Source: Colwellia sp.
GTDB lineage: Bacteria > Pseudomonadota > Gammaproteobacteria > Enterobacterales > Alteromonadaceae
Length of the DNA stretch: 64,000 nt
Assembly: GCA_013215385.1 (NCBI GenBank)
Contig: JABSOY010000020.1
Location: 26,511 to 90,510 of the forward strand
Reading direction: 5' to 3'
The position numbers and the translations under genes were made by a program. Below the pieces are notes generated by a model. The model had not been told where the DNA came from. It worked only from the letters and a program-made list of their open reading frames with translations, and made no database searches. Of the stretch, positions 2,968 through 64,000 are shown one piece after another (position 1 is the stretch's first letter; the number at the start of each line of letters is the position of its first letter).

Positions 2968-3072
2968 GTTTTATAACGCCATATTAAGCGGAAAATAATA
3001 ATTAGCTAAAATTTGTGAGGAAAAAACAACCGCTAGTAGTTATTTGTCCGTTTTAACCCCTCATAGTTTTTT
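2968..3072 (-). repeat. attC-like recombination site (degenerate member)
   Basis: The left end TATAACGCC-ATATTAAGCGG and central GCTAAAATTTGTGAGGAAAAAACAACC match the family. The right end is CCGTTTTAA...GTTTTTT. The right core overlaps the stop codon of the upstream cassette ORF. Confidence 0.5.
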
Positions 3073-4093
3073 ACAAATACTTTTGAAACCAACTAACTAA
3101 CTCTTGATTAGCCTTTTCTTTATTTATCATTAAACCATGGTCGTCATCTGGATATAGAACCAGCTTATGAGGTATATTATTCTTTGATAACGCCTCAGCG
3201 AGGTCAATGGAATGATTGACTGATACCCGTTTATCATTAGTGCCATGTAACAGCAAAATGGGAACATTTGGTGATAATTTATCAACCCAAGTTAATACTG
3301 AACGTTTGGCTAATTCCGTTATTTTGTTTTCGTTGTAATCAGGAATTCGATTTTTATACACTTTTTCCATAGAAGGGCGATATTCTAACCCTTTTAATAA
3401 ATCTGTATTTCCTGCAATAGTTGCTATCGCTTTAATATTTTTAACTTGCTTTAAAGCTATGTGTGTCTGCATTCCACCTCTACTAAAGCCATACATACCT
3501 ACTCGTTCAGGATCCGCACCTTCAATTTTAGAAATGTAATTTAATAACGCAGAAACATCATTAACATCTTTTCCGCCAAATTCATCGTGAGCAACATTTT
3601 TTGTACGAGTACCTCGATATTGGCTTCCTCGATATTGACTGCCAATAATAACAAAACCTTCATTGGCAATTGGAAATAAGTTATGCATCATAGAGCCAAA
3701 AACGACTGAACCGAAGCGACCATTGCCACCTCGGTTATATATTAACACCGGTAATTTCTTTACACTTGATTTAGGCTTAATAATATAGCCTTCTACTTCA
3801 TTACCATCGACTTGATACTTAAAAGTGCGGCACGACAAGTTACTCTTATATTGGTTAAATTTATCTTCTCCAAACATGGAGTCAAAAAATGACATTGCCT
3901 TTAATAGCTTTTCTTCAGACTTAATTCTACTTTTACGTTTTTTCTCCATAAAACCACGCCATGATTCGTAGCTTGTAAATTGAGCGCTAAAACAGTTTTG
4001 TTGATTTTTTATTTTTTCATCATTGATCAGGTTTGATGCTTGAGAAGTAAAAGAAGCTACAACTAAAAATAATCCTACTAAATATTTACTCAC
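3071..4093 (-). CDS. secreted S9-type serine peptidase / alpha-beta hydrolase
   Basis: Signal peptide MSKYLVGLFLVVASFTSQA. The nucleophile elbow is GFSRGG, with a late LLLHGTNDKRV and DDDHG (Ser-Asp-His order). GTG start with a GGAG RBS. The gene is flanked by attC-like sites. Confidence 0.75.
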   Translation of the reverse strand: MSKYLVGLFLVVASFTSQASNLINDEKIKNQQNCFSAQFTSYESWRGFMEKKRKSRIKSEEKLLKAMSFFDSMFGEDKFNQYKSNLSCRTFKYQVDGNEVEGYIIKPKSSVKKLPVLIYNRGGNGRFGSVVFGSMMHNLFPIANEGFVIIGSQYRGSQYRGTRTKNVAHDEFGGKDVNDVSALLNYISKIEGADPERVGMYGFSRGGMQTHIALKQVKNIKAIATIAGNTDLLKGLEYRPSMEKVYKNRIPDYNENKITELAKRSVLTWVDKLSPNVPILLLHGTNDKRVSVNHSIDLAEALSKNNIPHKLVLYPDDDHGLMINKEKANQELVSWFQKYL

Positions 4094-4122
4094 ATGAACT
4101 CCGTATCGGTGATTAATTAAAT

Positions 4123-4220
4123 TTCTAACGCTAGATTAAGCGGTAAAATAAGTCAGCTAAAATACCGAACTAAGTGTAAGTAGCCAACCATTTATGTTCA
4201 GTTAGGTTGCTTTGTTATAC
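4123..4220 (-). repeat. attC-like recombination site
   Basis: Sequence runs TTCTAACGC-TAGATTAAGCGG ... AGCCAACC ... GTTATAC. The inverse cores are TTCTAAC and GTTATAC, and the site ends directly at the stop of ORF 4221..4655. Confidence 0.6.
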
Positions 4221-4655
4221 TTAAGTAAGAAGTGAAAATTGAGATTTGAACTGAGCGATCAATTTTTTATTTTTTGAAGAGATAATTAAGCACTTTTCAG
4301 CCTGGCAAATAAAACTAAATAGTTTATCTATTGGCTGCCCGTTGTTATCCAATTTAGCAATAAAGTCATAGAAGTTATATATCTTATTAGAAGATTTACT
4401 CGAGCTAGTAATATAGTCTTCTGAACTCAATTCCATAATTCGCTTCGGGTCAAACTTAACTAACCTAATTAAGGAAACATTATACTCATTTTCTATGTCG
4501 CAAATATAATTATGAACACTTTGTTTACTCGTTGATTCTTTGCAATTTTCAGGCATTACAATAACCTGATCAAATGCATTAATAGTTAAAACATTATCGT
4601 TCGATATTACTGTACTTGAAAACCCTACTGCCAACAATATAGCTAAATATTTCAT
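4221..4655 (-). CDS. hypothetical secreted protein (cassette ORF)
   Basis: 144 aa with N-terminal signal-like MKYLAILLAVGFSSTVIS and an AGGAG RBS. I recognise no family. Confidence 0.6.
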   Translation of the reverse strand: MKYLAILLAVGFSSTVISNDNVLTINAFDQVIVMPENCKESTSKQSVHNYICDIENEYNVSLIRLVKFDPKRIMELSSEDYITSSSKSSNKIYNFYDFIAKLDNNGQPIDKLFSFICQAEKCLIISSKNKKLIAQFKSQFSLLT

Positions 4656-4670
4656 CTGAACTCCTTGTAT

Positions 4671-4763
4671 GTATAACGCCTAATAAGCGGGAATAAATAG
4701 TTGATTAAAATTGCAACGAACCAAGATTTAATCGTTTTTTCTTCATCATATTTTCACACAAGG
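4671..4763 (-). repeat. partial or degenerate attC-like site overlapping the 3' end of the MocR gene
   Basis: The left half GTATAACGCC-TAATAAGCGG-GAATAAATAGTTGATTAAAATTGCAACGAACCAAG matches the family well. The expected right half (CCGTTT..CTTGTTAxx) is at best very degenerate. Confidence 0.45.
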
Positions 4764-6153
4764 CTCCCAATCTAATCAAGGCTTTTAATCGGTGCCCTAA
4801 CGTTGGATGTGCAAAGCTTAATCTCAAGCAATTTGAAAACTTTTTCTCTGACGAGAATAACCGGCCTGGCGTGATTATTATGCCTTCGGCAATAGCACGT
4901 TGATAAAGTAAGAAGGTGTCAATTTCTACGGGTAGTTGCACCCAAATGGCCAACCCACCATCAGGTACGGTAAATGTTGTCGCGATTCTCCAATGATCTG
5001 CAATACCATTTGTTAACTGATCACGTTGTACGCGTAGTACTTTACGATATTGCTGTAAGTGCCTTTCGAAATGACCTTCGGCTAAAAAGTTCGACAAACC
5101 ATGTTGTATAGCTTGGCTGGTCGATAGCTGATAAACCAATTTCATCTGTACTATTTTTTTAAAGTGCTTGCCCGCGACAATCCAGCCAATACGCAAATCT
5201 CTTGAAAGTGACTTAGAAAAAGAGCTACATAAAATAAAGTTTCCCTGTGTATCATAGCTTTTAAGTGGCTCGACCTTAGAATGAAAACCTAAGTCTCCGT
5301 AGATATCATCTTCGATGATGATGATATTTTTATCGTTGGCAAGCGCTGCTATTTTACGTTTTTCTTTTACGGGGATAAGCGCCCCAGTTGGCGTGGCAAA
5401 GTTAGCCGTTAGCACACAAGCTTTTATGTCCCACTGTTTAGTTGCTTCATTGAGAGCGTCGGCCGTTAAGCCAATAGTATAAGAGCTTGGCAGTTCAACG
5501 ACTTGTAGTTTAAGTTGCTGTAATAGTTGTAAAACGCCATAAAATGCCGGGCTTTCTATGGCAACAATATCGCCTGGTTGGCACGTAGCCATCAAAGCTA
5601 AAAACAAACTGTTTTGACAGCCTGAAGTAATGCATATTTCCTGCGCTGAAATATTCAGCTCGCGCCTTCGATAATGTTCACTAATTTGATGTCTTAGTGA
5701 TAAGTCCCCTGGTGGCTCACAATAATAGAGCGCATTATTTTGCGGATTCTTTCGTAAAGCACGACTGATATGTCGGTTTAATAACAATAAGTGATTTGGC
5801 GCTTGGCTGGTGTCTAAATTTCGCGGGGCGATATCAAAAGCAGCGGTGCGTTCCATAATTTCATAAAAAACCTCAGGTACATCAACCAGTTTTGGTTTAC
5901 CAATTTCAGTCAGAGCTTGGCTAATCTGTTGAGGCGGCTTTGCGGGGGCAACGTAGTAGCCAGATTTTATTTTAACAAAAACAATCCCTCTTGCTTCTAG
6001 GGTATGCAGCGCTTTTTGCACGGAAATTTTTGAAACATTATACAGCCTGGCCAGATCTCGGATAGAAGGTAACCTTTCGTTGGGCCGCCATTTTTCATCA
6101 TCAATTTGAGCAATTAGCTTATTGGCTAGTTGTTCGTATTTGAACTGTCTCAT
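4705..6153 (-). CDS. MocR/PdxR-type GntR family regulator with aminotransferase-like domain
   Basis: N-terminal wHTH LPSIRDLARLYNVSKISVQKALHTLEARG. The C-terminal part, about 350 aa, is a fold-type I aminotransferase-like domain with SFSKSL (PLP-lysine-type motif). Confidence 0.85.
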   Translation of the reverse strand: MRQFKYEQLANKLIAQIDDEKWRPNERLPSIRDLARLYNVSKISVQKALHTLEARGIVFVKIKSGYYVAPAKPPQQISQALTEIGKPKLVDVPEVFYEIMERTAAFDIAPRNLDTSQAPNHLLLLNRHISRALRKNPQNNALYYCEPPGDLSLRHQISEHYRRRELNISAQEICITSGCQNSLFLALMATCQPGDIVAIESPAFYGVLQLLQQLKLQVVELPSSYTIGLTADALNEATKQWDIKACVLTANFATPTGALIPVKEKRKIAALANDKNIIIIEDDIYGDLGFHSKVEPLKSYDTQGNFILCSSFSKSLSRDLRIGWIVAGKHFKKIVQMKLVYQLSTSQAIQHGLSNFLAEGHFERHLQQYRKVLRVQRDQLTNGIADHWRIATTFTVPDGGLAIWVQLPVEIDTFLLYQRAIAEGIIITPGRLFSSEKKFSNCLRLSFAHPTLGHRLKALIRLGALCENMMKKKRLNLGSLQF

Positions 6154-52761: not shown

Positions 52762-53723
52762 TCACCTCAGCGATTATGATGCTCGCCTATATTTTGGATT
52801 TATTTTTTGCCGAAGTTAAACGTTTTCATCCTTTGGTTGGTTTTGGATTTTTAACCAATAAGGTTGAATTAGTCGCTAATTTAAAACCGACAGCAAATGA
52901 AAACACCAATAAGTGGCAACCGAGATTATTCGGCACTCTTTCTTGGTTACTATTATGTATTCCTCTCCCCGTTATATATTATTATTTTCACCAAAACACT
53001 TTTGTATTTTGGTGCTTAGACGCGATGACTCTTTATTTTTCTATTGGTTTGAAAAGCCTAAAACTTCATGCTCTGCAAATACTTAAACCACTAGAAAAAA
53101 ATGACTTAACAACCGCTCGGCACTTTTGTGGTTATTTAGTTAGCCGAAAAACCAACGAGTTATCTGAACAAGAAATATCAAGAGCAACGGTAGAGTCTGT
53201 ACTTGAAAATGGTCATGACGCTGCCGTAGCGAGCTTTTTTTGGTTTATTGTTGGCGGTGCGCCTTTAGTTATTTTACATAGATTAGCCAATACGTTAGAT
53301 GCGATGTGGGGTTATAAAAACCAACGTTTTCTCCACTTTGGCTGGTGCGCGGCCCGCATGGATGACTTACTCGGTTGGCCAAGTGCTAAAATTAGCGCGC
53401 TATTGTATGCCTGCCAAACGAACTTTTCGTTAACCCAAATGGTCAAGGCACTAAAAAATGGCTATCAGCAAAGTCAAAATTATAAAAGTTTGAATGGTGG
53501 CTGGGTAATGGCAACAGGCGCTAGCGTGTTAAACTTTGCCCTTGGCGGAACGGCTATTTATCATGGTAAAACAGTAATTTCACCGACCTTAGGTTGTGGT
53601 AAAACTGTGGTCAGGCAAGATATTTTTCGCAGTGTAACGCTGGTGAATAAAGCTGTTATTATTTTTATTGCGCTTTGCTTTAGCCATGACCTGATTAATA
53701 TTTTATTTGTTGGGAGCTGGTAA
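52758..53723 (+). CDS. cbiB: adenosylcobinamide-phosphate synthase
   Basis: Multi-TM protein of 321 aa showing the CobD/CbiB pattern (HPLVGFG..., ESVLENGHDA, LDAMWGYKN). Confidence 0.85.
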   Translation: MITSAIMMLAYILDLFFAEVKRFHPLVGFGFLTNKVELVANLKPTANENTNKWQPRLFGTLSWLLLCIPLPVIYYYFHQNTFVFWCLDAMTLYFSIGLKSLKLHALQILKPLEKNDLTTARHFCGYLVSRKTNELSEQEISRATVESVLENGHDAAVASFFWFIVGGAPLVILHRLANTLDAMWGYKNQRFLHFGWCAARMDDLLGWPSAKISALLYACQTNFSLTQMVKALKNGYQQSQNYKSLNGGWVMATGASVLNFALGGTAIYHGKTVISPTLGCGKTVVRQDIFRSVTLVNKAVIIFIALCFSHDLINILFVGSW

Positions 53724-54793
53724 TGACGATCCACCCTAATAAAGCTCCAGCTGCACTCGTTCATGGCGGGCAACTCAATCAAATGGCTGAGCTTTACCAA
53801 ATACCTACTGAACAATGGCTAGATCTTTCTACCGGCATAAGTCCAACGAGTTATCCGATCCCTGAAATACCGCAAGATATTTGGCAGCAATTACCGCAGC
53901 CAAGCAAAAGCTTATTCAACGCAGCTCGGCGTTATTATGGAACTAAAAATATTAGCGCAACTAGTGGTAGCCAAGCAATTATCGCGCGTTTACCGCATTT
54001 ATTTAAACATTACGTGCAAAAAAACATCACTCACATTGATGTCTGGTTACCGCAGGTAGGTTATAAAGAACATGAAAAATCATGGCGTGATGCTGGTTTT
54101 AATATTAAGCAATATCAACAATTACCCTCTGGTGAAGAATTAACTCAACACGCGATTGTGGTCGTTATTAACCCCAATAATCCGACCGGTAAATTGCAAC
54201 AGCAACCAACGTTAACAGCATTACTCAAAAAAATAGCGGCTCTATCAGGTTGGTTAGTAGTTGATGAAGCTTTTATGGATGTTATTCAGCCCAGCCAGTC
54301 GATTATTAATTTAACTGACAATAAGCACCTTTTTGTTTTACGTTCGGTTGGTAAGTTTTTTGGTTTAGCTGGTATTCGAATTGGCTTCTTAAGTGCCAAT
54401 CAATATTGGCTAGAAAAGTTAAAAGCAATGTCTTCGCCATGGGAAGTAAACGGTCCGGCACAATTTATTACTGAGCAAGCATTAAATAATCAGCAATGGC
54501 AATCTAGACAACAACAAACACTTATTACGTTATCAACGCAACTCGAAGAATTATTAACAGCAACGTTTTTAAAGCCGTTAAGTAAAGACGCAGAAATAAA
54601 AATTAGCATAAGTGGCTGCGGATTATTTAAAACATTAATTCACCCTCAAGCGACAGAGCTTTTTCAATCATTCTGTCGACAGGGGCTTTACGTGCGTTTA
54701 TGCGATGAAAAAAACGCCCTTCGTTTTGGTGTACCTAAGCAAGATCAATTTGCTAAACTAATTAAGTTACTTGCTCAACATCGCCATAGCTGA
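53723..54793 (+). CDS. cobD: threonine-phosphate decarboxylase (class I/II aminotransferase fold)
   Basis: N-terminal HGGQL...DLSTGISP. The PLP Lys region is RSVGKFFGLAGIRIG. It is coupled to cbiB (TAATG). Confidence 0.8.
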   Translation: MTIHPNKAPAALVHGGQLNQMAELYQIPTEQWLDLSTGISPTSYPIPEIPQDIWQQLPQPSKSLFNAARRYYGTKNISATSGSQAIIARLPHLFKHYVQKNITHIDVWLPQVGYKEHEKSWRDAGFNIKQYQQLPSGEELTQHAIVVVINPNNPTGKLQQQPTLTALLKKIAALSGWLVVDEAFMDVIQPSQSIINLTDNKHLFVLRSVGKFFGLAGIRIGFLSANQYWLEKLKAMSSPWEVNGPAQFITEQALNNQQWQSRQQQTLITLSTQLEELLTATFLKPLSKDAEIKISISGCGLFKTLIHPQATELFQSFCRQGLYVRLCDEKNALRFGVPKQDQFAKLIKLLAQHRHS

Positions 54794-55294
54794 AGCGAGT
54801 TTATCTGCATATTCAGTGTTTTTTAACTGCCCTTTTTCGCTATCAAAATTATCATAAAAGTTTGGCACAGATAAATGAGCTTTCACATCACCAGCAAAAT
54901 ATGGTGCTGAATTTACTGCTGCAGCTAAAACTGTTGCTGCGCCGCCAGGACCCGGCGAGGTAGAAAGTAATACTAACGGTTTATTTTGATATACTTTTTG
55001 CAGCGTACGAGAACTCCAGTCAAATAGGTTTTTAAATGCTGCGGTATATGAACCATTGTGCTCTGCAAAACCAATAACCACAGCATCAGCACTGGCTATT
55101 TTATCAATAAAGTTCTGAGCTAATTGCGGCTTACCTAATTCAGCTTCTCTATCTTCACTAAACAAAGGCATTTCATAATCATTAATATCAAGCACTTCAA
55201 CTTGTGCATTTTCCACTAAACTTGCGGCGTGGCTTACTAACTGTTTATTAATTGATTTACGGCTACTGGTGGCAGCAAAAGCGATAATTTTCAT
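54767..55294 (-). CDS. NADPH-dependent FMN reductase family protein
   Basis: MKIIAFAATSSRKSINKQL..., EHNGSYTAAFKN, 175 aa. It overlaps the cobD 3' end by 27 nt in convergent orientation. Confidence 0.8.
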   Translation of the reverse strand: MKIIAFAATSSRKSINKQLVSHAASLVENAQVEVLDINDYEMPLFSEDREAELGKPQLAQNFIDKIASADAVVIGFAEHNGSYTAAFKNLFDWSSRTLQKVYQNKPLVLLSTSPGPGGAATVLAAAVNSAPYFAGDVKAHLSVPNFYDNFDSEKGQLKNTEYADKLASAMAMLSK

Positions 55295-55408
55295 ATGAAC
55301 TCCAATTTTGTAACGATATACCTACTATTTATAGGTATTGCAATGAAAGTAGTGTAGTTTATTTCCTATAGATTAATAACAACCTAATTACAAACATATT
55401 GTTTCCAT

Positions 55409-56341
55409 ATGAAAGCTAATACAACTTTATTCCCACCCCAAAATAAAAGTAATTTACTTGATGGCATCGCTATTTTTGTGCAAGTTGTACAAAGTAAAAG
55501 CTTTGTCAATGCTGCTGAAAAAATGAATCACTCAACCTCTTATATCAGTAAAGAGGTCAGTAAGTTAGAAACTCGTTTAGGCGTGCGTTTATTGCATCGC
55601 ACCACAAGGACATTGAGCTTAACATCTGAAGGTGAAGTTTATTATCAACAATGTCAGCAGATAATTGAAGATGCTTTGCAAGTAGAAAGTAGTATTTCAG
55701 GACGACAGCAAATACCTCAAGGTCGTTTAAAATTAAGCTGCCCTGTTGGTATAGGCGTTTCACGTATTCGCCCTATATTGGCAGAGTTTCTTGCTAAGTA
55801 TCCAAAGATAACTTTAGACATTGACTTAAACGATCATAAAGTAGATTTAGTTGCCGATGGCTTTGATATAGTCATCAGAGCTGCAGTTCAACTTGAAGAC
55901 TCGAGTTTGATCAGTCGCCGTTTTATGAACTCAACTAGCCTGACGCTCGCTTCACCTGAATATTTAAAGAATCATGGTACACCTATGCACCCTGAGGAGT
56001 TAGTTGATCATCAAATGATCAGTTACCGTAACTTAAAAACACCTGAAACTTGGCACTATACCACTAAGAGCGGGCACAAAACTCAGACCCATGTGACGAG
56101 CCGCGTATCATGTAATAACTCAGAAATGATGATTTCACTTTGTTTGGCTGGGCAAGGCATAATACGCATGCCGCTTTTTAATTTACGAGAAGAAGTAGAG
56201 TCCGGTAAATTAATTCCGTTGTTTGAAGATTTAATGCCGATTAATATAGGCGTTTATCTGGTTTATCCAAGTAAAAAAAATATGCCCGCTAAGCTGAGGT
56301 GTTTCATAGACTTTATAATGGAAAAACTAGGCGATAGTTAG
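55409..56341 (+). CDS. LysR family transcriptional regulator
   Basis: HTH FVQVVQSKSFVNAAEKMNHSTSYISKEVSKLE. It is divergent from the FMN reductase gene. Confidence 0.85.
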   Translation: MKANTTLFPPQNKSNLLDGIAIFVQVVQSKSFVNAAEKMNHSTSYISKEVSKLETRLGVRLLHRTTRTLSLTSEGEVYYQQCQQIIEDALQVESSISGRQQIPQGRLKLSCPVGIGVSRIRPILAEFLAKYPKITLDIDLNDHKVDLVADGFDIVIRAAVQLEDSSLISRRFMNSTSLTLASPEYLKNHGTPMHPEELVDHQMISYRNLKTPETWHYTTKSGHKTQTHVTSRVSCNNSEMMISLCLAGQGIIRMPLFNLREEVESGKLIPLFEDLMPINIGVYLVYPSKKNMPAKLRCFIDFIMEKLGDS

Positions 56342-56348
56342 TAAACAA

Positions 56349-56984
56349 CTACGCCAAGTGCTGCTTTTGCTCAAACATCCCTTTCACTAAGAAGAATTGA
56401 GCAAGGTAATAGCTGGTCATTATCCAAAAGCTGGCATTAGGTATTTGTTGATAGAATTGATTAAGTCCAATTAATGAATCAGAGATAATAAAACTTATAC
56501 CGCCAATAATCAGCCAAGTATTCGATTTTTGTGACAGTAACGTTGTTATTCCCATCAACAGAAGTACCGTCATATATATCAATACCGGTATAAATAGCTC
56601 ACCTAAACCAGCATAAATGAATGAAAACATGCCAATGCCATACAAGCAATATAATACGATTATCGGCACACGTTTTAAGGGAAAAGGTTTTAAGCTAAAA
56701 ATATAAAAAATATGGGCAACTAAGAAAGAACCTAAACCAAAAATAAACCAATTAATCCGATCGTAATCTAAGAAGAAGTCTCCTAAAGCGGAAAATACTA
56801 AACCGACTATAAATAGTTTATGAGCACTTTCTCGAGTTATAGACCATTGTTGCCATGAAAACTGGAGTAAAACAGCGATAGGTAAAATCTTCAATGCCCA
56901 GCTAAACGGAAACGGTGTTAAAAAAGTAGAAAGAATAAATATAATGGCAAAAGATATAAATAAATTTTGCTGTGTTTTCGTCAT
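56349..56984 (-). CDS. YhhN-family lysoplasmalogenase-like membrane protein
   Basis: 211 aa and about 7 TM. The motifs ALGDFFL and ISDSLIG are typical of YhhN. Confidence 0.7.
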   Translation of the reverse strand: MTKTQQNLFISFAIIFILSTFLTPFPFSWALKILPIAVLLQFSWQQWSITRESAHKLFIVGLVFSALGDFFLDYDRINWFIFGLGSFLVAHIFYIFSLKPFPLKRVPIIVLYCLYGIGMFSFIYAGLGELFIPVLIYMTVLLLMGITTLLSQKSNTWLIIGGISFIISDSLIGLNQFYQQIPNASFWIMTSYYLAQFFLVKGMFEQKQHLA

Positions 56985-57291
56985 TTTTTTATATTCCTAT
57001 TAAATATTTCCCTCAGTTTATTGAATAAACGTTTGAAAATCATCTTTTAAATCAACAAGTGATAATAGGTAAAGTTTTAATACTAAGAAGCCATTAAGAG
57101 TTCTACACGATAGAATAATATAACTGAATTAATGTTTTATAAGCTCAGTAAAGCTAATTTTTTGGTTAAACCTTTGTTTAGTGCTAAAAACTGAACGACG
57201 AGTACCATGACACGTAGCAAAAGCTTTAACAGCTAAAAATAATAAGTTCTATAGATAATTAAATGACCACAGAGGAGCTATGATTACCTAT

Positions 57292-57327
57292 AAAAACGCT
57301 TAGCCGAATAGAATAGGGCTAAGCGTT
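57292..57327 (-). terminator. rho-independent terminator of the TonB-dependent receptor gene
   Basis: On the minus strand: AACGCTTAGCC-loop-GGCTAAGCGTT followed by TTTTT. Confidence 0.75.
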
Positions 57328-57358
57328 GTGTTTACTAATGTACCATTTAAAACCGGTA

Positions 57359-59458
57359 TTAAAACTTGTAACTTACCCCGAACTTTACGGTTCTAGGTTT
57401 ACCCACATTAATCTCACCGTTTTCACCACCGGCTAAATAACCTTTATCAAACATGTTTTCAATATTCAATCTCACTAATAAGTCATTGCCTGCCATAGGT
57501 AAAGCATAGCTGAAGCCAGCATCAAAACGAGTGTAACCCGATTTTTTTAGGCTATTTTTAGCATCAGCATAACGATCACCTTCGTAAAAGGCACCAAGAT
57601 TAAGTGCGGCATTTTCTGAAATTGAATACTTAAGCCAAACAGAAGCGGTTAACTCTGGTACATCTTCAGGACGGTTGCCTTGATATTCATTATGGGCATC
57701 ATATTTTGCATCGAGATACATAGCAGAAGTGATCAATGATAAGTTTTCATTGATCTCACCAATTACGCCGATCTCTAACCCTTTATGGCGTTGAATACCG
57801 CCTTGCGTTGTGATCATCTCGAATTCAGCATCGTTCTCCAAGTTAACTTCAAGCACGATATTTTTACGTTTGATGTCAAAAGCCGCGGCATTAAGGCGTA
57901 ATTTACCAGAAAATAATTCCCACTTAGCACCAACTTCAACCATGATGCCTTTTACCGGATCTAGCTCAAGACCGAAATTTGCATCTTCATCATCAGTTAC
58001 ATCACCTTGCGGTTCAAAGCTTTCACTGTAATTTGCATAAAGTGAAGCATTTTCATTCGGATGATAAATCACCCCAAATTTAGGCAATACCGAAGAGTTA
58101 TCCGCATCGGCTTTTTCTTGCTTATCAAAACGCACCCCGAGTAATACTTGCCATTGATCATTAACTGTGATCAAATCTTGCCCGAAAACACCATAATATT
58201 TATAAGATTCATCTTTTGCTTTCGCATCAGCGTAATCAAGTTCTTGACGAGGGATAATCGTACCTTCGTTAAGGTTCGCTTCCTGTTTATCACCTTTCAC
58301 TTTTAAAGAGGTATATTCGTGCTTTAAATAATTACCGCCCACTAATAGATCATGGGACAAACCAGCAAAGTCAACTGAGCCTACAAAATCGAAATAAAAG
58401 GCCTTTTGCTGCCAGTCTTCTAATTTATCGTAAGGTTTGTTTTCATAAATACCTGTTTCGGGATCAAAGTCATCTTGTGTTTGCGGCTTACTTTCCCAAC
58501 GTTCACGTTCGTTATGTTGGTTGTTATACCCTGCTTCTAGTTGCCAGTTTTCATTGAGTTGGTAACGAACATCTGCACCATAGTTTTGACTTTGCGCATC
58601 AATTTTTGTCCACGGCATATCCCAAATAAGATCATCACCACCGACCACATCACCATTGTCATCAACCAAAGCACCACTGTCTTGACCCGCTACTTCATCT
58701 GAACTGTCAAAATGAAATGACAAGGTTAAGTCATCATTGACATCAAAATCGGTCATCAGGCTACCGACAAAAAAATCACTTTCTTGCTCGGTACCATCTT
58801 GATATTCACGCCAGTTTTTATTGTCTTCTTTTTCAAGAATAGCGCGATAACGCATGGTCTTTTCTTCATTAAAACTCCCCCCTATATCGAGGCCTAATCT
58901 TAATGAACCATTTTCATCTCCTTTTACTGATATTTCAGTAAACGAATCAAAGCTTGGTTTTTTAGTGACTAAATTAATTAATCCGCCGGGCGTTGATTGC
59001 CCGTAAAGCAGACTTGAAGGTCCTTTCAATACTTCAACATTATCAATCAATGCCATAGGTAAACGATATTTAGAGAAATGCTGGTGGCCATTTTTTAGCA
59101 AGTTGGTACTTTCTTCTAGGGTAAAACCACGCAAACTGAAACGCTCTCGGTCCGTTGTTACCCTGCCAATAGATACACTGGCGTCATTTCTCAGTGCTTC
59201 GCCTAACGTTACCACCAGTTGATCATCCATTACTTCGGTTGGAATAACCGTTACTGATTGAGGAGTATTCAACAATGAAACATTTGAACGCATAGCAGCA
59301 TGCGCTTCGTCTGTTTTGTAATGAGCATGCCTGCCTACTACTGTTAATACTTCGATATCCTTATCGGTTTTATCATCTGCTACTTCCATTGCAAATGCGC
59401 CTGTTGGCTGTAAAATTACTGCGATAACTACGGATATCAATTTAACTTTTGTGTTCAT
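57359..59458 (-). CDS. TonB-dependent siderophore receptor
   Basis: Signal peptide and plug domain (VEVLKGPSSLLYGQSTPGGLINLVTKKP). The 22-strand barrel region ends ...FGVSYKF. A Fur box lies upstream. Confidence 0.9.
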   Translation of the reverse strand: MNTKVKLISVVIAVILQPTGAFAMEVADDKTDKDIEVLTVVGRHAHYKTDEAHAAMRSNVSLLNTPQSVTVIPTEVMDDQLVVTLGEALRNDASVSIGRVTTDRERFSLRGFTLEESTNLLKNGHQHFSKYRLPMALIDNVEVLKGPSSLLYGQSTPGGLINLVTKKPSFDSFTEISVKGDENGSLRLGLDIGGSFNEEKTMRYRAILEKEDNKNWREYQDGTEQESDFFVGSLMTDFDVNDDLTLSFHFDSSDEVAGQDSGALVDDNGDVVGGDDLIWDMPWTKIDAQSQNYGADVRYQLNENWQLEAGYNNQHNERERWESKPQTQDDFDPETGIYENKPYDKLEDWQQKAFYFDFVGSVDFAGLSHDLLVGGNYLKHEYTSLKVKGDKQEANLNEGTIIPRQELDYADAKAKDESYKYYGVFGQDLITVNDQWQVLLGVRFDKQEKADADNSSVLPKFGVIYHPNENASLYANYSESFEPQGDVTDDEDANFGLELDPVKGIMVEVGAKWELFSGKLRLNAAAFDIKRKNIVLEVNLENDAEFEMITTQGGIQRHKGLEIGVIGEINENLSLITSAMYLDAKYDAHNEYQGNRPEDVPELTASVWLKYSISENAALNLGAFYEGDRYADAKNSLKKSGYTRFDAGFSYALPMAGNDLLVRLNIENMFDKGYLAGGENGEINVGKPRTVKFGVSYKF

Positions 59459-59489
59459 ATGTCCTCAATGCCTATTTTCCCAAAAAGTA

Positions 59490-59523
59490 TCAAGTCACTT
59501 GAATCAAGATTCAAGTGACTTGA
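59490..59523. repeat. perfect 16-bp-arm inverted repeat in the receptor leader
   Basis: TCAAGTCACTTGAATC (59490-59505), then AA, then GATTCAAGTGACTTGA (59508-59523). It lies 32 nt upstream of the receptor start codon. Confidence 0.9.
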
Positions 59524-59559
59524 GACTTAATTAATTGTCATGTAAATAATCCAGAGAAT

Positions 59560-59578
59560 CTTAATGAGAACAATTATC
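59560..59578. promoter_or_regulatory. Fur box
   Basis: CTTAATGAGAACAATTATC matches the consensus GATAATGATAATCATTATC at 14 of 19 positions by hand alignment. It sits in the promoter region of the TonB-dependent receptor. Confidence 0.65.
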
Positions 59579-59688
59579 ATTGTCAATTGTAAGAACGCAA
59601 AAAACTGAATGTTTTTATGTATTCAGGCTTTTTTTTATTTGTATCACATTTAATTTACACATTAGAAACATTTAAGTACTCTATAAAT

Positions 59689-60885
59689 TTAATTTATCAA
59701 CAACTGTGGTGAGAATGGCCTAGACGCTTCATCTGGTATAGAAACACTGATAGTGGTTAATACAATTCCTGCCAAGCAGATTATTATTGCGAGTATCCCA
59801 GAAGTCCCCTGCCATTTAACGACAGAGGGCTGCTTACGTTTAACCTTAAGCCAGGCCATGTATATCCCTGACGCTATGATAAAGCTTAGGCATAGACCAA
59901 AGACAAACCAAATAACTTTAGAGGTAATACCTGAAAAATGTCCAAAATGAATGAGGTCTACTGAATCAGTTAAACGGGCATATATTGATAGCTCTGTCGC
60001 ATACTGAACGGCTAACACTTCACCACTCACTGGATGAAGGTAAATACGGTTAGCTCTGTCAACAACAAGAAAGTCATTATTATTACCTCTGATTTCAATC
60101 GGTTTATTAGCGCTATTCGGGTAACGTATATAGGTAATATCCAAACTTTCAAAGGCTACTTTAGCTTTAATAATTACCTTAGTTAAAGCTAATGGTTTTG
60201 CATTAACTACTTCTGATTGTATTTGGGGCGGCTGCGGATAATATTCAATCTTTGCAGTCTGGAGGCTTTGATCAATAAAATACCAGAAACTGGTTATTGA
60301 AACCGTCGCGATAAACCACCATGACCATAGCGCGATGATTTTATGCCAGCTAGACCATGTTGTTCGTTTTGAGCTTTTAAGTTTATCTGGTCGCTTAAAG
60401 AAATAACGCCACCAGTCTTTATAAACAAAAAAACTACTCACTAAAATAATAAGTAGTAATAAGCTTAGTGAAGTAACAATAAGTTTGCCGACATCGCCCA
60501 TCGAAAGCTTGCGGTGGATGTCTCGAATAAAGCGAGACAATCGCCCCCAGCGACCTTCCCCTAAAATTTGTCCGGTATTGGCATCAAAATAGACAAAGCT
60601 GCGCAAATTATTTGTCACTATCTGAGCTTCGCCAGCAAGGTACCTTTCAGGCCTTATTTGAATTCTTTGTAGATAACTATCGGGGTATTTTTTAGCTAGC
60701 TGATTTTCAAGTTGATGAAAGTCGACTTTTGTTCTTGGGGTTAGCGCCCGAAATTTTTGATCGATTAAATATTCAATCTCATGACTTATACTAGCAAGTG
60801 TTCCAGTGAAACATACAAATAATAATAATGCGCCTAAAAATACTCCAGCCCAAGTATGGAGTTGAAACCACTGCTTATTTGTCAC
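59689..60885 (-). CDS. PepSY-associated TM helix protein (PiuB-like iron-regulated membrane protein)
   Basis: 398 aa. N-terminal WFQLHTWAGVFLG motif, four TM segments, and a position upstream of a siderophore receptor. Confidence 0.8.
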   Translation of the reverse strand: MTNKQWFQLHTWAGVFLGALLLFVCFTGTLASISHEIEYLIDQKFRALTPRTKVDFHQLENQLAKKYPDSYLQRIQIRPERYLAGEAQIVTNNLRSFVYFDANTGQILGEGRWGRLSRFIRDIHRKLSMGDVGKLIVTSLSLLLLIILVSSFFVYKDWWRYFFKRPDKLKSSKRTTWSSWHKIIALWSWWFIATVSITSFWYFIDQSLQTAKIEYYPQPPQIQSEVVNAKPLALTKVIIKAKVAFESLDITYIRYPNSANKPIEIRGNNNDFLVVDRANRIYLHPVSGEVLAVQYATELSIYARLTDSVDLIHFGHFSGITSKVIWFVFGLCLSFIIASGIYMAWLKVKRKQPSVVKWQGTSGILAIIICLAGIVLTTISVSIPDEASRPFSPQLLIN

Positions 60886-60944
60886 TTTTAACCTTTACAA
60901 TTTCCTACCAACCCTTTTGATGGTCGATATACCCCAATATTTTG

Positions 60945-61028
60945 CCGCCACTATATCAGCTATATATTATTAAGGTAAATTTTGGACTATGTCTCAGAGT
61001 TTAGCTGTTTTCGGGTTTGCTGTTAGTT
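60945..61028 (-). repeat. degenerate terminal attC-like site
   Basis: GGTAAATTTTGGACT...AGCTGTTTTCGGGTTTGCTGTTAGTT resembles the family centre and right half (GGCTAAAATTTTGAGGAAC...AACTGT.ATTTTTCCGTTT...CTTGTTAG). The left half is poorly conserved. Confidence 0.35.
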
Positions 61029-61221
61029 ACGCAGGTTGATAAATAAGTTATCTCGCTAAATCCTCTCATATCACCATAGAAAGCTAAAGCGTATAATTAT
61101 GTCAGTATGGTTTGCTTTCGTAGCCAAACTTCATTACAGGCATTAAACCAAATTTCTTCTTTTGCCACATAACGGTCATTACCTAAAAAACACAAAACAA
61201 CGTTTCGGATTAGAATTCGTA

Positions 61222-61322
61222 TCGATAACGCCCCACTAAGAGGCAAATAATAGTTGGTTAAAATAAGCGACGAAGGAGCAAAAACCAACTATTTTTTGTC
61301 CTTGTTTAACAGCTTGTTAGCC
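61222..61322 (-). repeat. attC-like recombination site
   Basis: CGATAACGCC-CCACTAAGAGG-CAAATAATAGTTGGTT ... AACCAACTATTTTTT-GTCCTTGTTTAACAGCTT-GTTAGCC. The internal arms AATAGTTGGTT and AACCAACTATT are a perfect match. Confidence 0.7.
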
Positions 61323-61324
61323 AT

Positions 61325-61849
61325 TTATTCGGGTTCCATAGGAGCGTTGTCAAATAATGTAATATAGTCAGTACTTTCGGATAACTTTAAAAAAATAGAA
61401 AATTTAACATTCTTCGGTTCTTTAAATACTTCCTTAAAATTGACATTCACTGCAAATTCGAAACCACTAGGTTTTTCAGCCCTCATTTTGTCTTGAATGA
61501 TAATTAAATTATTTATTGCTTCTTCAGTGAAGACAAGTTCATATTCTGTCCTTTCAGCGAGAGAGTTAAGCCATCCATTTTCAGCGGGAAGTGTTTTAAC
61601 AGCGTAAATATATAAAGGGTAATTTTGTATAATGTTGCCTTTTGTAGTGACTAAAGTTAAAGATATTTTCGTTTTGGAGATATTTATCTCTAGTGGTTTA
61701 GTGATATGTATTTTGGCTTTTAATTCATTTGGGGCAAGTTCCAAAAAGCTATTTTCATCAAAAGAACTAAATTTAAGCATTGTTGCAAAGGGAATGCTTG
61801 TGCAACTGCAAAGGATTAAGCAATTTATGATTATAAAAATCCGTTTCAT
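61325..61849 (-). CDS. hypothetical lipoprotein (cassette ORF)
   Basis: 174 aa with lipobox-like MKRIFIIINCLILCSCTS and a GGAG RBS. I recognise no family. Confidence 0.65.
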   Translation of the reverse strand: MKRIFIIINCLILCSCTSIPFATMLKFSSFDENSFLELAPNELKAKIHITKPLEINISKTKISLTLVTTKGNIIQNYPLYIYAVKTLPAENGWLNSLAERTEYELVFTEEAINNLIIIQDKMRAEKPSGFEFAVNVNFKEVFKEPKNVKFSIFLKLSESTDYITLFDNAPMEPE

Positions 61850-61864
61850 GATAACTCCATTTAT

Positions 61865-61962
61865 GGCTAACGCTTATATAAGCGGAAAATTATAGTAGGC
61901 TAAAATTTTGAGGAACGAAAAAAAGCCAACTGTAATTTTTCCGTTTGATGTTCTTGTTAGCT
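61865..61962 (-). repeat. attC-like recombination site
   Basis: GGCTAACGC-TTATATAAGCGG ... GGCTAAAATTTTGAGGAACGAAAAAAAGCCAACTG ... TTTTTCCGTTTGATGTTCTT-GTTAGCT. The right core contains the stop codon of ORF 61957..62265. Confidence 0.7.
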
Positions 61963-62265
61963 TTTAGCTGATTGACCATTATCCAGTTTCAGTAAACAAT
62001 TACCATTCTTCTGTTTATTGACTGAATAACCATCCGCAAAAAACTTACGATCTGAAAAACTTATTTCAAACTTACTTTTTAAATTAAAATAAGCCTGAAA
62101 ATTGCAGTTCTTTAATAAAAGTTCTGATATGTAATGATTTTTTGATATGAGATTACCGTTAATGTCGGTATTTTCACTGGTGACAACTTTACCTTCCAAC
62201 ACTTTGTTATTCTCGGCATAAGAGCCAAACGAAAAAACTAATAATACTAAAATTGAATATTTCAC
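61957..62265 (-). CDS. hypothetical small secreted protein (cassette ORF)
   Basis: 102 aa with a GTG start after AAGGA and signal peptide MKYSILVLLVFSFGSYA. Confidence 0.6.
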   Translation of the reverse strand: MKYSILVLLVFSFGSYAENNKVLEGKVVTSENTDINGNLISKNHYISELLLKNCNFQAYFNLKSKFEISFSDRKFFADGYSVNKQKNGNCLLKLDNGQSAKS

Positions 62266-62289
62266 ATAAATCCTTATTTGTGATTAAAA

Positions 62290-62386
62290 AGCTAACGCCC
62301 CATTAAGAGGCTTTTAATTGTTGGCTAAAATGCGAGGAACGAAGCTAGCCAACTGTTCAGCGTCCGTCTTGAATAGCTTGTTATGT
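62290..62386 (-). repeat. attC-like recombination site
   Basis: AGCTAACGCC-CCATTAAGAGG ... TTGGCTAAAATGCGAGGAACGAAGCTAGCCAACTG ... CGTCCGTCTTGAATAGCTT-GTTATGT. The right core contains the stop codon of ORF 62381..62641. Confidence 0.7.
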
Positions 62387-62641
62387 AGATCGACTCTCCA
62401 TCCGTGAATTTTGGAAATTTAGGTGACTACTTCTAATAAACATAACTATGGAAATGGTAATGACAGCTAGTCCAAATCCAATACAAATGTAGTCACCACT
62501 TGTATATGACACATTTACTCTTCCGTTGAAGCCAGAAGCATATGCGTCTGCAAACTTACCCAGAACATAAGCTCGGCTTAAAACGGGTGTAATACACATA
62601 AAAGTGCCTAAAATTGCAATTAATTTTATAAACTTATCCAT
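62381..62641 (-). CDS. hypothetical small membrane protein (cassette ORF)
   Basis: 86 aa with two hydrophobic helices (LIAILGTFMCITPVL and ICIGFGLAVITISIVMFI) and an AGGAG RBS. Confidence 0.55.
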   Translation of the reverse strand: MDKFIKLIAILGTFMCITPVLSRAYVLGKFADAYASGFNGRVNVSYTSGDYICIGFGLAVITISIVMFIRSSHLNFQNSRMESRST

Positions 62642-62668
62642 TGAATACTTCTCCTTTTTTTGAAATCT

Positions 62669-62760
62669 ACATAACGCTTTGCTAAGCGGTAAATAATGGT
62701 TGGCTATAATCGCGAAGCGATGGCTAACTGTTATTTTTCCGTTTAAGCAACTTGTTATGT
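62669..62760 (-). repeat. attC-like recombination site
   Basis: The ends ACATAAC and GTTATGT are perfect inverse cores. The L-box-like pair GCTAAGCGG and CCGTTTAAGC carries a bulge. The central stem is TGGTTGGCTA...TGGCTAACTG with the tip TCGC-GAA-GCGA. Confidence 0.75.
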
Positions 62761-62788
62761 GTTTATTTTTGCATACAACAATTGTTTT

Positions 62789-63901
62789 TTAGTCAGGTAT
62801 TTCTATTTCTTGATTTTCATTTATTCGAAGACTATGGAGCTTAAGAACATCAATCGATGTTCTTCTCCCTGATGTGATGAGTAATTGACATGTAATAGAT
62901 ATTTGCTTTTTCTCATGTTCAGCCTTTAACGTCTCATAAAGTCTAGAGTCTGTTTCTATAAAGCAAGTATGCTCTTTACCATCAATCTCTAATCGTAAAT
63001 AAACCCTGCCTTTTTCATCCTCTATAGGCCAACTATATTTCTCAATATAAGCTGGTAAATCAACGTACTCTTTAGCTTTACTTTTACTCAATATACCTTT
63101 AAAACGCTCTATTTTTTCCCTGTCAGAATAATTAAAAACAACCTTGTTAGGAACATTGTCAAAAACTTCCTCCTTGAATGACCAGTCAAAATTGAACTCT
63201 AATTTATCTGAACTATTTGAAAATAAGTCGAGAAAATTATGACAAAACGAACTGTCGATACCGATACTGTGTAATTTTGCAGGAGACTCATAATCATTAG
63301 ATTTTATTTTTTCAGAAATTCTAGATAAGGCGATTGCCAAATTAGCATTTACGTACCGGCTAAGCGAGGTCTCATGCTCAAATACATTGTTCTGACTATA
63401 TTCTTCATCAATATCTAATAATTGAAGTTCAACAGTGTATATGAATGATCCCGCTTTAGGTGCCAACATATTTACACCTGATAGATAATGTTTAATAGCT
63501 TTCCTTTTGCCTTTAACTTTTATGTTATTACTTGCAGATGACTTTATAATTCCATACAGTCCTGTTAAGGCATTTAGACCTTCACTAAACTTGATTCGAC
63601 CATGATTTATTCGTTCTCCGGATGAGCGAACCTGTAAAAAGTCACTTTCTCCATTAAGAAGTTTATTTCTGAAATTTTCAGAGCAAAATCCATGTGCATT
63701 TGAAATGTTTAGAATAGCTTCAGCTAATAAGGTATTTGACTGCTCATGATTAACTAATACTTCAGCAGGCAGAACGATCTCAAGCTCATGGGGTTGGTCA
63801 TACCAAACACTAAATCGTTCAGGGACAACTGTCTTTTCCTGAATTCCATTTATACGAAAGTAATTTTTAAGAGAAGTAAGAATAGCTTGATTATTGTTCA
63901 T
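62789..63901 (-). CDS. hypothetical protein, 370 aa (second gene of a multi-gene cassette)
   Basis: Long uninterrupted ORF. Its ATG overlaps the stop of an upstream ORF (ATGA at 63898-63901). It has no signal peptide and no domain I recognise. Confidence 0.7.
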   Translation of the reverse strand: MNNNQAILTSLKNYFRINGIQEKTVVPERFSVWYDQPHELEIVLPAEVLVNHEQSNTLLAEAILNISNAHGFCSENFRNKLLNGESDFLQVRSSGERINHGRIKFSEGLNALTGLYGIIKSSASNNIKVKGKRKAIKHYLSGVNMLAPKAGSFIYTVELQLLDIDEEYSQNNVFEHETSLSRYVNANLAIALSRISEKIKSNDYESPAKLHSIGIDSSFCHNFLDLFSNSSDKLEFNFDWSFKEEVFDNVPNKVVFNYSDREKIERFKGILSKSKAKEYVDLPAYIEKYSWPIEDEKGRVYLRLEIDGKEHTCFIETDSRLYETLKAEHEKKQISITCQLLITSGRRTSIDVLKLHSLRINENQEIEIPD

Positions 63902-64000
63902 ACTTTAGCCACCTCCAAGTTGTAAATCATTTCCGCTTTACTAGCTAATTCCATCATGTTTACTAAAGCCTTACTATCAAACCTTTGTTTCAATGGAATC
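63898..64000 (-). CDS. 3' end of an unidentified gene (partial, continues beyond the window)
   Basis: The minus-strand frame is open from the window edge: ...IPLKQRFDSKALVNMMELASKAEMIYNLEVAKV*. Its stop TGA overlaps the ATG of the 370-aa ORF. Confidence 0.5.
   Translation of the reverse strand, partial: IPLKQRFDSKALVNMMELASKAEMIYNLEVAKV

Follow-up and report, generated by a model that had tools for sequence, protein, structure and literature searches.

The stretch considered here is a 64,000-nt piece of a marine Colwellia metagenome-assembled genome (Colwellia sp., assembly GCA_013215385.1, contig JABSOY010000020.1, positions 26,511 to 90,510 of the forward strand), hereafter referred to as the window, with a G+C content of 37.5%. 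At its high-coordinate end, two overlapping genes are found on the minus strand within a single integron cassette. The downstream gene, B, encodes a protein of 370 amino acids (aa), and the gene upstream of it on the same strand, A, is cut by the end of the window. The pair corresponds by sequence to a catalogued but experimentally uncharacterised anti-phage candidate, and a predicted nuclease encoded by A is paired with an orphan protein encoded by B.

Gene structure of the A-B pair

The start codon of B (ATG at 63901-63899) overlaps the stop codon of A (TGA at 63900-63898), as can be read directly from the sequence, and a GGAGG Shine-Dalgarno motif for B is located within the last codons of A (Table 1). 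Gene A could be completed from a 34.9-kb ENA scaffold (L001), which was retrieved with the exact B protein together with a short Logan contig (L002). Over 11,212 nt, this scaffold matches window positions 52789-64000 with 100% identity, and it reaches 646 nt further, the window position being 64647 minus the L001 position. On this scaffold, the full gene A lies at 192-749 and encodes 185 aa, which gives an extrapolated window span of 63898 to 64455, and a further 191 nt are available upstream of it. The original prediction, made from the letters of the window and a list of its open reading frames (ORFs), had placed a 370-aa ORF at exactly 62789-63901 on the minus strand, overlapping by ATGA the stop of an upstream gene that would continue past the window. 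All of this holds true, and of the sequence beyond position 64000 whose recovery it had called for, 646 nt are supplied by L001, all of A included.

Table 1. Coordinates of the genes and sites discussed, in window positions.
Feature	Position	Strand	Remarks
Gene B	62789..63901	-	ORF, 370 aa; PADLOC PDC-M02B; NQZ24031.1, locus tag HRT53_18545
Gene A, 3' end	63898..64000	-	33 codons and stop; tail translation ...KAEMIYNLEVAKV*; continues past the window end
ATGA start/stop overlap of A and B	63898..63901	-	translational coupling
GGAGG Shine-Dalgarno motif for B	63912..63916	-	within the last codons of A; spacing to the ATG 10 nt
attC closing the A-B cassette	62668..62762	-	DNA fold -22 kcal/mol, z = -6.0; covariance model R1, 94.4 bits
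attC of the next cassette	62289..62388	-	86-aa ORF, 62381-62641; repeat family, R1
attC of the following cassette	61864..61964	-	102-aa ORF, 61957-62265; repeat family, R1
Last attC	61222..61324	-	174-aa ORF, 61325-61849; repeat family, R1; distal end of the array

Boundaries and mobility of the cassette

Four repeats of about 100 nt are found in this region, each 3' of one minus-strand ORF, with the ends ..TAACAAG and GCGTTA.. common to them. Read on the minus strand, these repeats are attC sites. As single-stranded DNA, three of them fold better than shuffled sequence does (z down to -6.0), and a covariance model built from the four sites of the array (R1) recovers all of them with 94-107 bits. 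In the attC that closes the A-B cassette, the R' core GTTA occupies 62675-62672, and the end of the cassette is G 62675.

Relatives of A and B that are 97-98% identical at the protein level can be found next to different neighbour genes in JGI metagenome contigs (L009 and L010/L011/L012). When all these contexts are aligned upstream of A, identity starts exactly at G|TTATGTGTTTC, the sequences before it being unrelated (G|TTATGTG crossover). Downstream, the shared sequence takes in the stop codon of B and continues into the attC as far as GCGTTA, after which the contexts diverge. In L009, R1 places one attC at 1885-1988, directly ahead of A, and another at 3785-3887, directly behind B. No attC was detected by R1 between A and B, either at the window locus or in L009, and the genes themselves overlap, as the original prediction had it. 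Because the identity of the copies ends at the G|TT crossover and at the attC, with unrelated flanks on both sides, A and B make up a single cassette of 1,890 nt (L001 83-1972; window 62675 to extrapolated 64564). By these alignments, the cassette has found its way into three or more different arrays.

The start of L001 lies inside an attC-like hairpin upstream of A, ATATGGACTCTCC...GGGGAGTCCATAT, with z = -4.6 and ending in cattcGTTAT. A break of the assembly inside this upstream attC is probably the reason why the recoverable sequence ends there. The upstream attC itself (L001 1-86; extrapolated 64562-64647) belongs to a sequence class that differs from that of the four attC sites of the window.

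Membership of the candidate system PDC-M02

In PADLOC-DB, B matches the PDC-M02B model PDLC04302 (E 2.7e-170, residues 1-367 of 370) and 18 more M02B models, and A (L001 192-749) matches the PDC-M02A model PDLC04297 (E 1.3e-48) and 24 more M02A models. Even the 33-aa tail of A that lies in the window matches PDC-M02A when taken alone (E 0.003). The two genes also follow the layout of PDC-M02, lying side by side on one strand with A before B, and here they overlap by 4 nt. By these model matches, the A-B pair is assigned to the PADLOC candidate anti-phage system PDC-M02.

PDC stands for "phage defence candidate", a designation obtained by guilt-by-embedding for genes nested in known defence systems, with mobilome-associated families excluded before curation (Payne et al., 10.1101/2024.01.29.577857). 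The 145 PDCs are described as untested by the paper that introduced them (10.1101/2024.01.29.577857). In its supplementary file 8, PDC-M02 is entered as CAS_00021, FAM_01850>>FAM_00842, with the comment "assign as candidate" and the number 894, apparently a count of instances (10.1101/2024.01.29.577857). For the PDC-M02 family, neither a function nor a mechanism nor a description of domains was found in print, and the A-B pair is not described in the papers examined that mention DUF4365, the domain harbored by A. The pair is not new to databases, and what the window adds is a new member, in the form of an integron cassette, of the catalogued PDC-M02.

Gene A, a predicted stand-alone DREN nuclease

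Most of the A protein corresponds to the Pfam domain DUF4365 (E 1.3e-22, residues 19-171 of 185). Among 38 homologues of A, residues S17-K18-E19, D43, N44, D48, Q68, L69 and K70 are invariant, and the catalytic motif D48...Q68-x-K70, of the PD-(D/E)xK type, is intact in A. The three residues of this motif correspond to D41/Q60/K62 of NbaDREN, the triple mutation of which abolishes the nuclease activity of SPARDA (10.1101/2023.06.08.544223), and also to D46/Q66/K68 of EAT16, a toxin associated with extracellular contractile injection systems (eCIS), where they are required for toxicity (PMC11297309).

Regarding its structure, A was represented by the AlphaFold model of P0021, a protein 97% identical to it (pLDDT 87.4). 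Six matches at E <= 1e-3 were obtained with this model in a Foldseek search of the PDB, all of them SPARDA DREN-APAZ chains (9vx6, 9jt2, 9qbp, 9qbq and 9qcc; E 3e-5 to 4e-4, prob 1.00, TMq 0.51-0.59). The alignments extend over about 155-180 columns, the targets having 401-423 residues (TMt 0.25-0.30). A sequence search of the PDB with A, as a single sequence and then as a profile, gave nothing significant. Because A stops after the nuclease domain, without an APAZ domain, it is predicted from its sequence and modelled fold to be a free-standing DREN (DUF4365) nuclease of the PD-(D/E)xK type.

Gene B, an orphan family with an OB-fold-like C-terminus

B has no match in Pfam or NCBIfam, which is consistent with the lack of any recognisable motif in the original prediction. 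A Pfam scan of 100 members of the B family gave nothing save one marginal match to RHH_4 (1/100, E 0.005), and searches of the PDB with B profiles of 21 or 100 sequences gave no match. In an exhaustive profile search with B, 526 clusters (50% identity) were collected at E <= 1e-3, and since nearly all of them have a length of 365-420 aa, this indicates a discrete, stand-alone protein family of about 375 aa. Within this family, G151-S152 is invariant (consensus LGQTExGSY), and W20, P45, D87, G101, R182, G214, C220, G298 and Y322 are conserved at 90% or more.

The AlphaFold model of B (pLDDT 86.7, pTM 0.79) displays, at residues ~274-361, the order b1-b2-b3-a-b4-b5 that is typical of OB folds. 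When the PDB is searched with this model by Foldseek, nearly all of the top matches are OB-fold proteins (E 4e-3 to 0.1, probabilities 0.9-0.99), namely single-stranded DNA-binding proteins (SSBs), the anticodon-binding domains of LysRS and AspRS, ExoVII, the OB domain of PolC, and HIN. On the basis of this model, the C-terminal domain of B would thus be OB-fold-like. W291, Y322, K326 and K331 are among its conserved residues. The first ~270 residues of B match no solved structure in the PDB by Foldseek. Against viral models, B was matched over its full length by Q6NE06 of Leptospira phage LE1 (E 4e-16), itself uncharacterised, the other matches being to SSB, LEF-3 and OB proteins of the DUF3127 type. 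An Argonaute- or APAZ-like identity of B was considered and rejected, no Argonaute, MID, PIWI or APAZ domain being present among the Foldseek matches listed.

Homologous pairs and their neighbourhoods

Nine loci with homologous pairs were compared, from Photobacterium (two), Shewanella, Halomonas, two metagenome arrays, Vibrio, Pseudomonas and Pseudoalteromonas, six of them being non-redundant and more distant. The order A then B, with a start/stop overlap of 1-11 nt, is kept in all nine. Since this arrangement is conserved in 9/9 loci and B homologues are found in 526 clusters, the pairing of A with B is not due to chance. The identities to the window copy, given as A/B in %, are 80/67, 78/65, 81/65, 74/55, 64/39, 55/31 and 51/27, B thus being more diverged than A in every pair compared. 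Such a faster divergence of B is the pattern expected for a conserved effector combined with a sensor engaged in an arms race.

With regards to genomic context, three of the pairs stand out. That of Vibrio alginolyticus belongs to a prophage, in which it begins 10 nt after a gene for a CI-like repressor (HTH_3 + Peptidase_S24). In Pseudomonas eucalypticola, the pair is preceded by AbiEi/AbiEii, McrBC and Bro-N, and in Pseudoalteromonas it has an integrase on one side and DarT-NADAR on the other. Both A and B also match phage protein families (phrog_27905, E 4e-21, and phrog_27927, E 3e-7). By tblastn, B had no match in phages and one weak match in plasmids, in Methylobacterium, with 21% identity. 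A contig profile scan with the B alignment yielded two loci only, one of them in Halomonas olivaria.

In that genome, H. olivaria TYRC17 (AP019416.1; L004 7445-9000), A and B are both split into several short ORFs, which represents either a decayed copy or sequencing frameshifts. In Photobacterium sp. Alg240-V54, A-B is bracketed by direct repeats of ~185 nt (L003 6913-7094 and 9114-9297). These repeats begin directly after the preceding stop codons and are not matched by R1; they may be a longer, different class of attC or another repeat element.

Proposed function and alternative explanations

The original prediction had seen in the A-B cassette a candidate defence or toxin-antitoxin-like module and the best candidate for an undescribed system. 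The latter was overstated, the pair being already catalogued as PDC-M02, while the idea of a multi-gene candidate defence cassette is supported by the PDC-M02 matches, the attC bounds and the neighbourhoods of the homologues, the function itself still being an inference. The prediction would have been undone by an upstream ORF that was an ordinary housekeeping gene outside any cassette, or by two proteins of well-characterised metabolic families. What was found is a predicted DREN-type nuclease within the cassette and an orphan partner, both matching PADLOC models.

Taken together, the A-B pair is probably a nuclease-based defence system, with B as its regulator or sensor. A would be the effector, and B would combine the roles of sensor and regulator, thereby replacing the APAZ-Argonaute scaffold. 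Both proteins would be made in fixed proportion, and their complex would keep the nuclease inactive. An infection cue would then be detected by B, most plausibly single-stranded or abnormal nucleic acid at the OB domain, or else a phage protein. Upon detection, B may oligomerise or rearrange and so bring DREN subunits together. The assembled subunits would form an active nuclease that degrades DNA, and the infection would be aborted or the invader destroyed. The more specific model in which B senses single-stranded DNA and assembles A by oligomerisation is put forward as a possibility that we ourselves consider doubtful. With the same reserve, it can be hypothesized that PDC-M02 as a whole follows an Argonaute-independent, SPARDA-like logic, a guide-free OB sensor of phage single-stranded DNA or replication intermediates assembling a DREN oligomer.

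Several observations weigh against a defence function, or against parts of the proposed mechanism. No experimental test, validation or renaming of PDC-M02 was found in the literature, and tests of other PDCs have had mixed outcomes, with PDC-M63 and PDC-S04 among the failures (PMC12409345). Several homologous pairs sit among ordinary genes without defence neighbours. The OB-fold-like assignment of the C-terminal domain of B comes from a predicted model with weak Foldseek E-values (best 4e-3), and the N-terminal 270 residues, with G151-S152, D87 and R182, could carry an activity that has gone unseen. As to expression, a possible promoter within the cassette, TAGACA-17-TAAATT, lies 30 nt upstream of A and is a weak match to the consensus; it is not evidence for a promoter, because the scan yields no more such sites than shuffled sequence does.

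The pair could also be a toxin-antitoxin (TA) or addiction module, in which A is a toxic nuclease, B its neutraliser, and the main role is the stabilisation of the array or mobile element and not phage defence; this is considered unlikely. Active DUF4365 nucleases are indeed toxic, as exemplified by EAT16 (PMC11297309) and by the collateral DNA degradation of SPARDA (10.1101/2023.06.08.544223). Moreover, A and B are tightly coupled and always inherited as a pair, and cassettes of this type are common in chromosomal integrons (10.1101/2024.07.02.601686). The architecture would nevertheless be atypical for a type II system, as the putative toxin gene comes first, and the "antitoxin" B is twice the size of A, has no helix-turn-helix (HTH) or ribbon-helix-helix (RHH) domain and diverges more quickly than the toxin. 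On its own, the DREN domain is inactive and not constitutively toxic (PMC12205087), and the prophage-repressor and AbiE/McrBC/DarTG neighbourhoods of the homologues point to immunity. In any case, addiction overlaps with defence by abortive infection and does not exclude it.

Defence could alternatively take the form of a type IV-like, methylase-less restriction, with B binding modified or foreign DNA through its OB-like domain and directing cleavage by A, the cell surviving. The PD-(D/E)xK nuclease fold predicted for A and the lack of a methyltransferase in the cassette are compatible with this, as are the finding of PDCs embedded in known defence systems (10.1101/2024.01.29.577857) and the proximity of the pair to McrBC in Pseudomonas. 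It is judged quite improbable, however, given that the characterised DREN nucleases are indiscriminate effectors activated by oligomerisation (10.1101/2023.06.08.544223; PMC12205087), that no modified-base reader (such as SRA, YTH or EVE) is detected in B by Pfam, and that OB folds bind single strands more often than modified duplexes; it too overlaps with a defence role rather than excluding it. An accessory role in the recombination or repair of mobile elements, without any immune role, is very improbable. A would then be an Hjc-like junction resolver and B an OB-fold binder of single-stranded DNA, in line with the Hjc-resolvase-like topology of DUF4365 (10.1101/2023.06.08.544223; PMC11297309), the resemblance of the C-terminal domain of B to the OB domains of SSB and ExoVII, and the occurrence of the pair in prophages and integrase-bearing islands. 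Yet the prophage copy lies beside the lysogeny repressor, outside the replication and recombination module, A-B moves as an isolated integron cassette without other replication or recombination genes, and PDC-M02 entered the list of defence candidates through a curation from which mobilome-associated families had already been removed (10.1101/2024.01.29.577857).

The array and its surroundings

Regarding the position of the cassette, A-B comes fourth when counted from the distal end of the array, and the window stops inside it. Because chromosomal PepSY_TM and TonB-receptor genes adjoin the attC at 61222-61324, the distal end of the array lies at that site. The original prediction had located the A-B cassette at the edge of the array, mistaking for it the edge of the window; it was right in that the other cassettes hold one ORF each, at least for the three in view (86, 102 and 174 aa). 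No integrase was found among the 18 window ORFs scanned with Pfam, including those of integrase-like sizes, and any integrase must therefore lie beyond position 64000. Either the array is the distal part of an integron with its intI past position 64000, or it is a cluster of attC sites without integrase. The proteins of the three neighbouring cassettes (61325-62641, minus strand) display hydrophobic N-termini or segments and have no match in Pfam or PADLOC.

A second cluster of attC-like sites is present on the minus strand ~57 kb from the main array, at 2970-3071, 4122-4222 and 4670-4766, with R1 scores of 55.7, 27.9 and 21.4 bits, respectively. These sites flank minus-strand ORFs encoding a GNAT acetyltransferase (2428-2955), a Peptidase_S9/alpha-beta hydrolase (3071-4093) and a 144-aa protein (4221-4655), and ordinary chromosomal genes separate the two clusters. 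The second one could be an attC cluster without integrase, or part of an array split by rearrangement.

In the metagenome contig L009 (JGI contig Ga0589534_0029801), an Aga_Nuclease gene, encoding a predicted pPIWI-associated nuclease, is located at 127-960, two genes upstream of A-B (PADLOC, E 1.3e-77; Pfam pP_pnuc_1/2), so that another effector nuclease of an Argonaute-associated kind lies close to the pair. A weak attC match at 970-1074 suggests that this gene forms a cassette of its own. No Argonaute was called on L009, the remaining called genes being without Pfam match.

Comparison with known systems

Among characterised systems, SPARDA is similar to the A-B pair in its effector, a DUF4365/DREN nuclease of the PD-(D/E)xK type with the D...QxK motif found in A, and in its organisation as two co-translated genes. 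By analogy, the nuclease of A probably needs to be licensed by its partner. The isolated DREN domain of SPARDA is monomeric and inactive, and it acquires collateral DNase and RNase activity only once it is tetramerised by filament formation (PMC12205087), the outcome in SPARDA including collateral DNA degradation (10.1101/2023.06.08.544223). In contrast to the SPARDA protein, A has no APAZ domain and counts 185 aa versus ~400-420 aa, and B is not an Argonaute. Because B has no MID or PIWI match in Pfam or among the Foldseek matches listed, guide-RNA-directed sensing is not expected. The A-B pair is thus not a member of SPARDA, lacking both APAZ and Argonaute, though the effector is common to both.

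That defence systems are stored in integron cassettes has been documented, and one of them, Divona, is a single-gene anti-phage cassette from the chromosomal integron of Vibrio cholerae (Darracq et al., 10.1101/2024.07.02.601686). Like A-B, Divona is an integron cassette that makes use of a DUF4365 domain. It differs in consisting of one protein, in which DUF4365 is combined with a RecB/Mrr-like nuclease and crr6, whereas A-B has two genes and another partner; crr6 is found in neither A nor B, Pfam giving DUF4365 in A and nothing in B. EAT16 carries at its N-terminus a DUF4365 domain like that of A, with conserved D...QxK residues that are required for its cytotoxicity (PMC11297309). Unlike the intracellular two-gene module that A-B would represent, EAT16 is a secreted and injected eCIS-associated toxin with another C-terminal domain. 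With regards to type II TA systems, no antitoxin domain of the HTH, RHH or AbrB type is detected in A or B by Pfam.

Compared with PDC-M02 as originally defined, by embedding in known defence systems of RefSeq genomes, the pair described here occurs as an integron cassette in a marine Colwellia metagenome-assembled genome. This cassette is compact (1.9 kb) and its boundaries are exactly known, which makes it amenable to direct synthesis and testing. If the pair proves active, one of the more frequent PADLOC candidates, going by the number 894 of its entry, would become a validated system, and a multi-gene example would be added to the anti-phage genes stored in chromosomal integrons. The DREN nuclease of short Argonaute systems would then also be at work outside them, as a stand-alone effector under an entirely different sensor. 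Should the tentative oligomerisation model hold true in addition, DREN would be a portable, oligomerisation-gated "suicide" module that can be combined with varied sensors and that fits, together with one of them, into one integron cassette.

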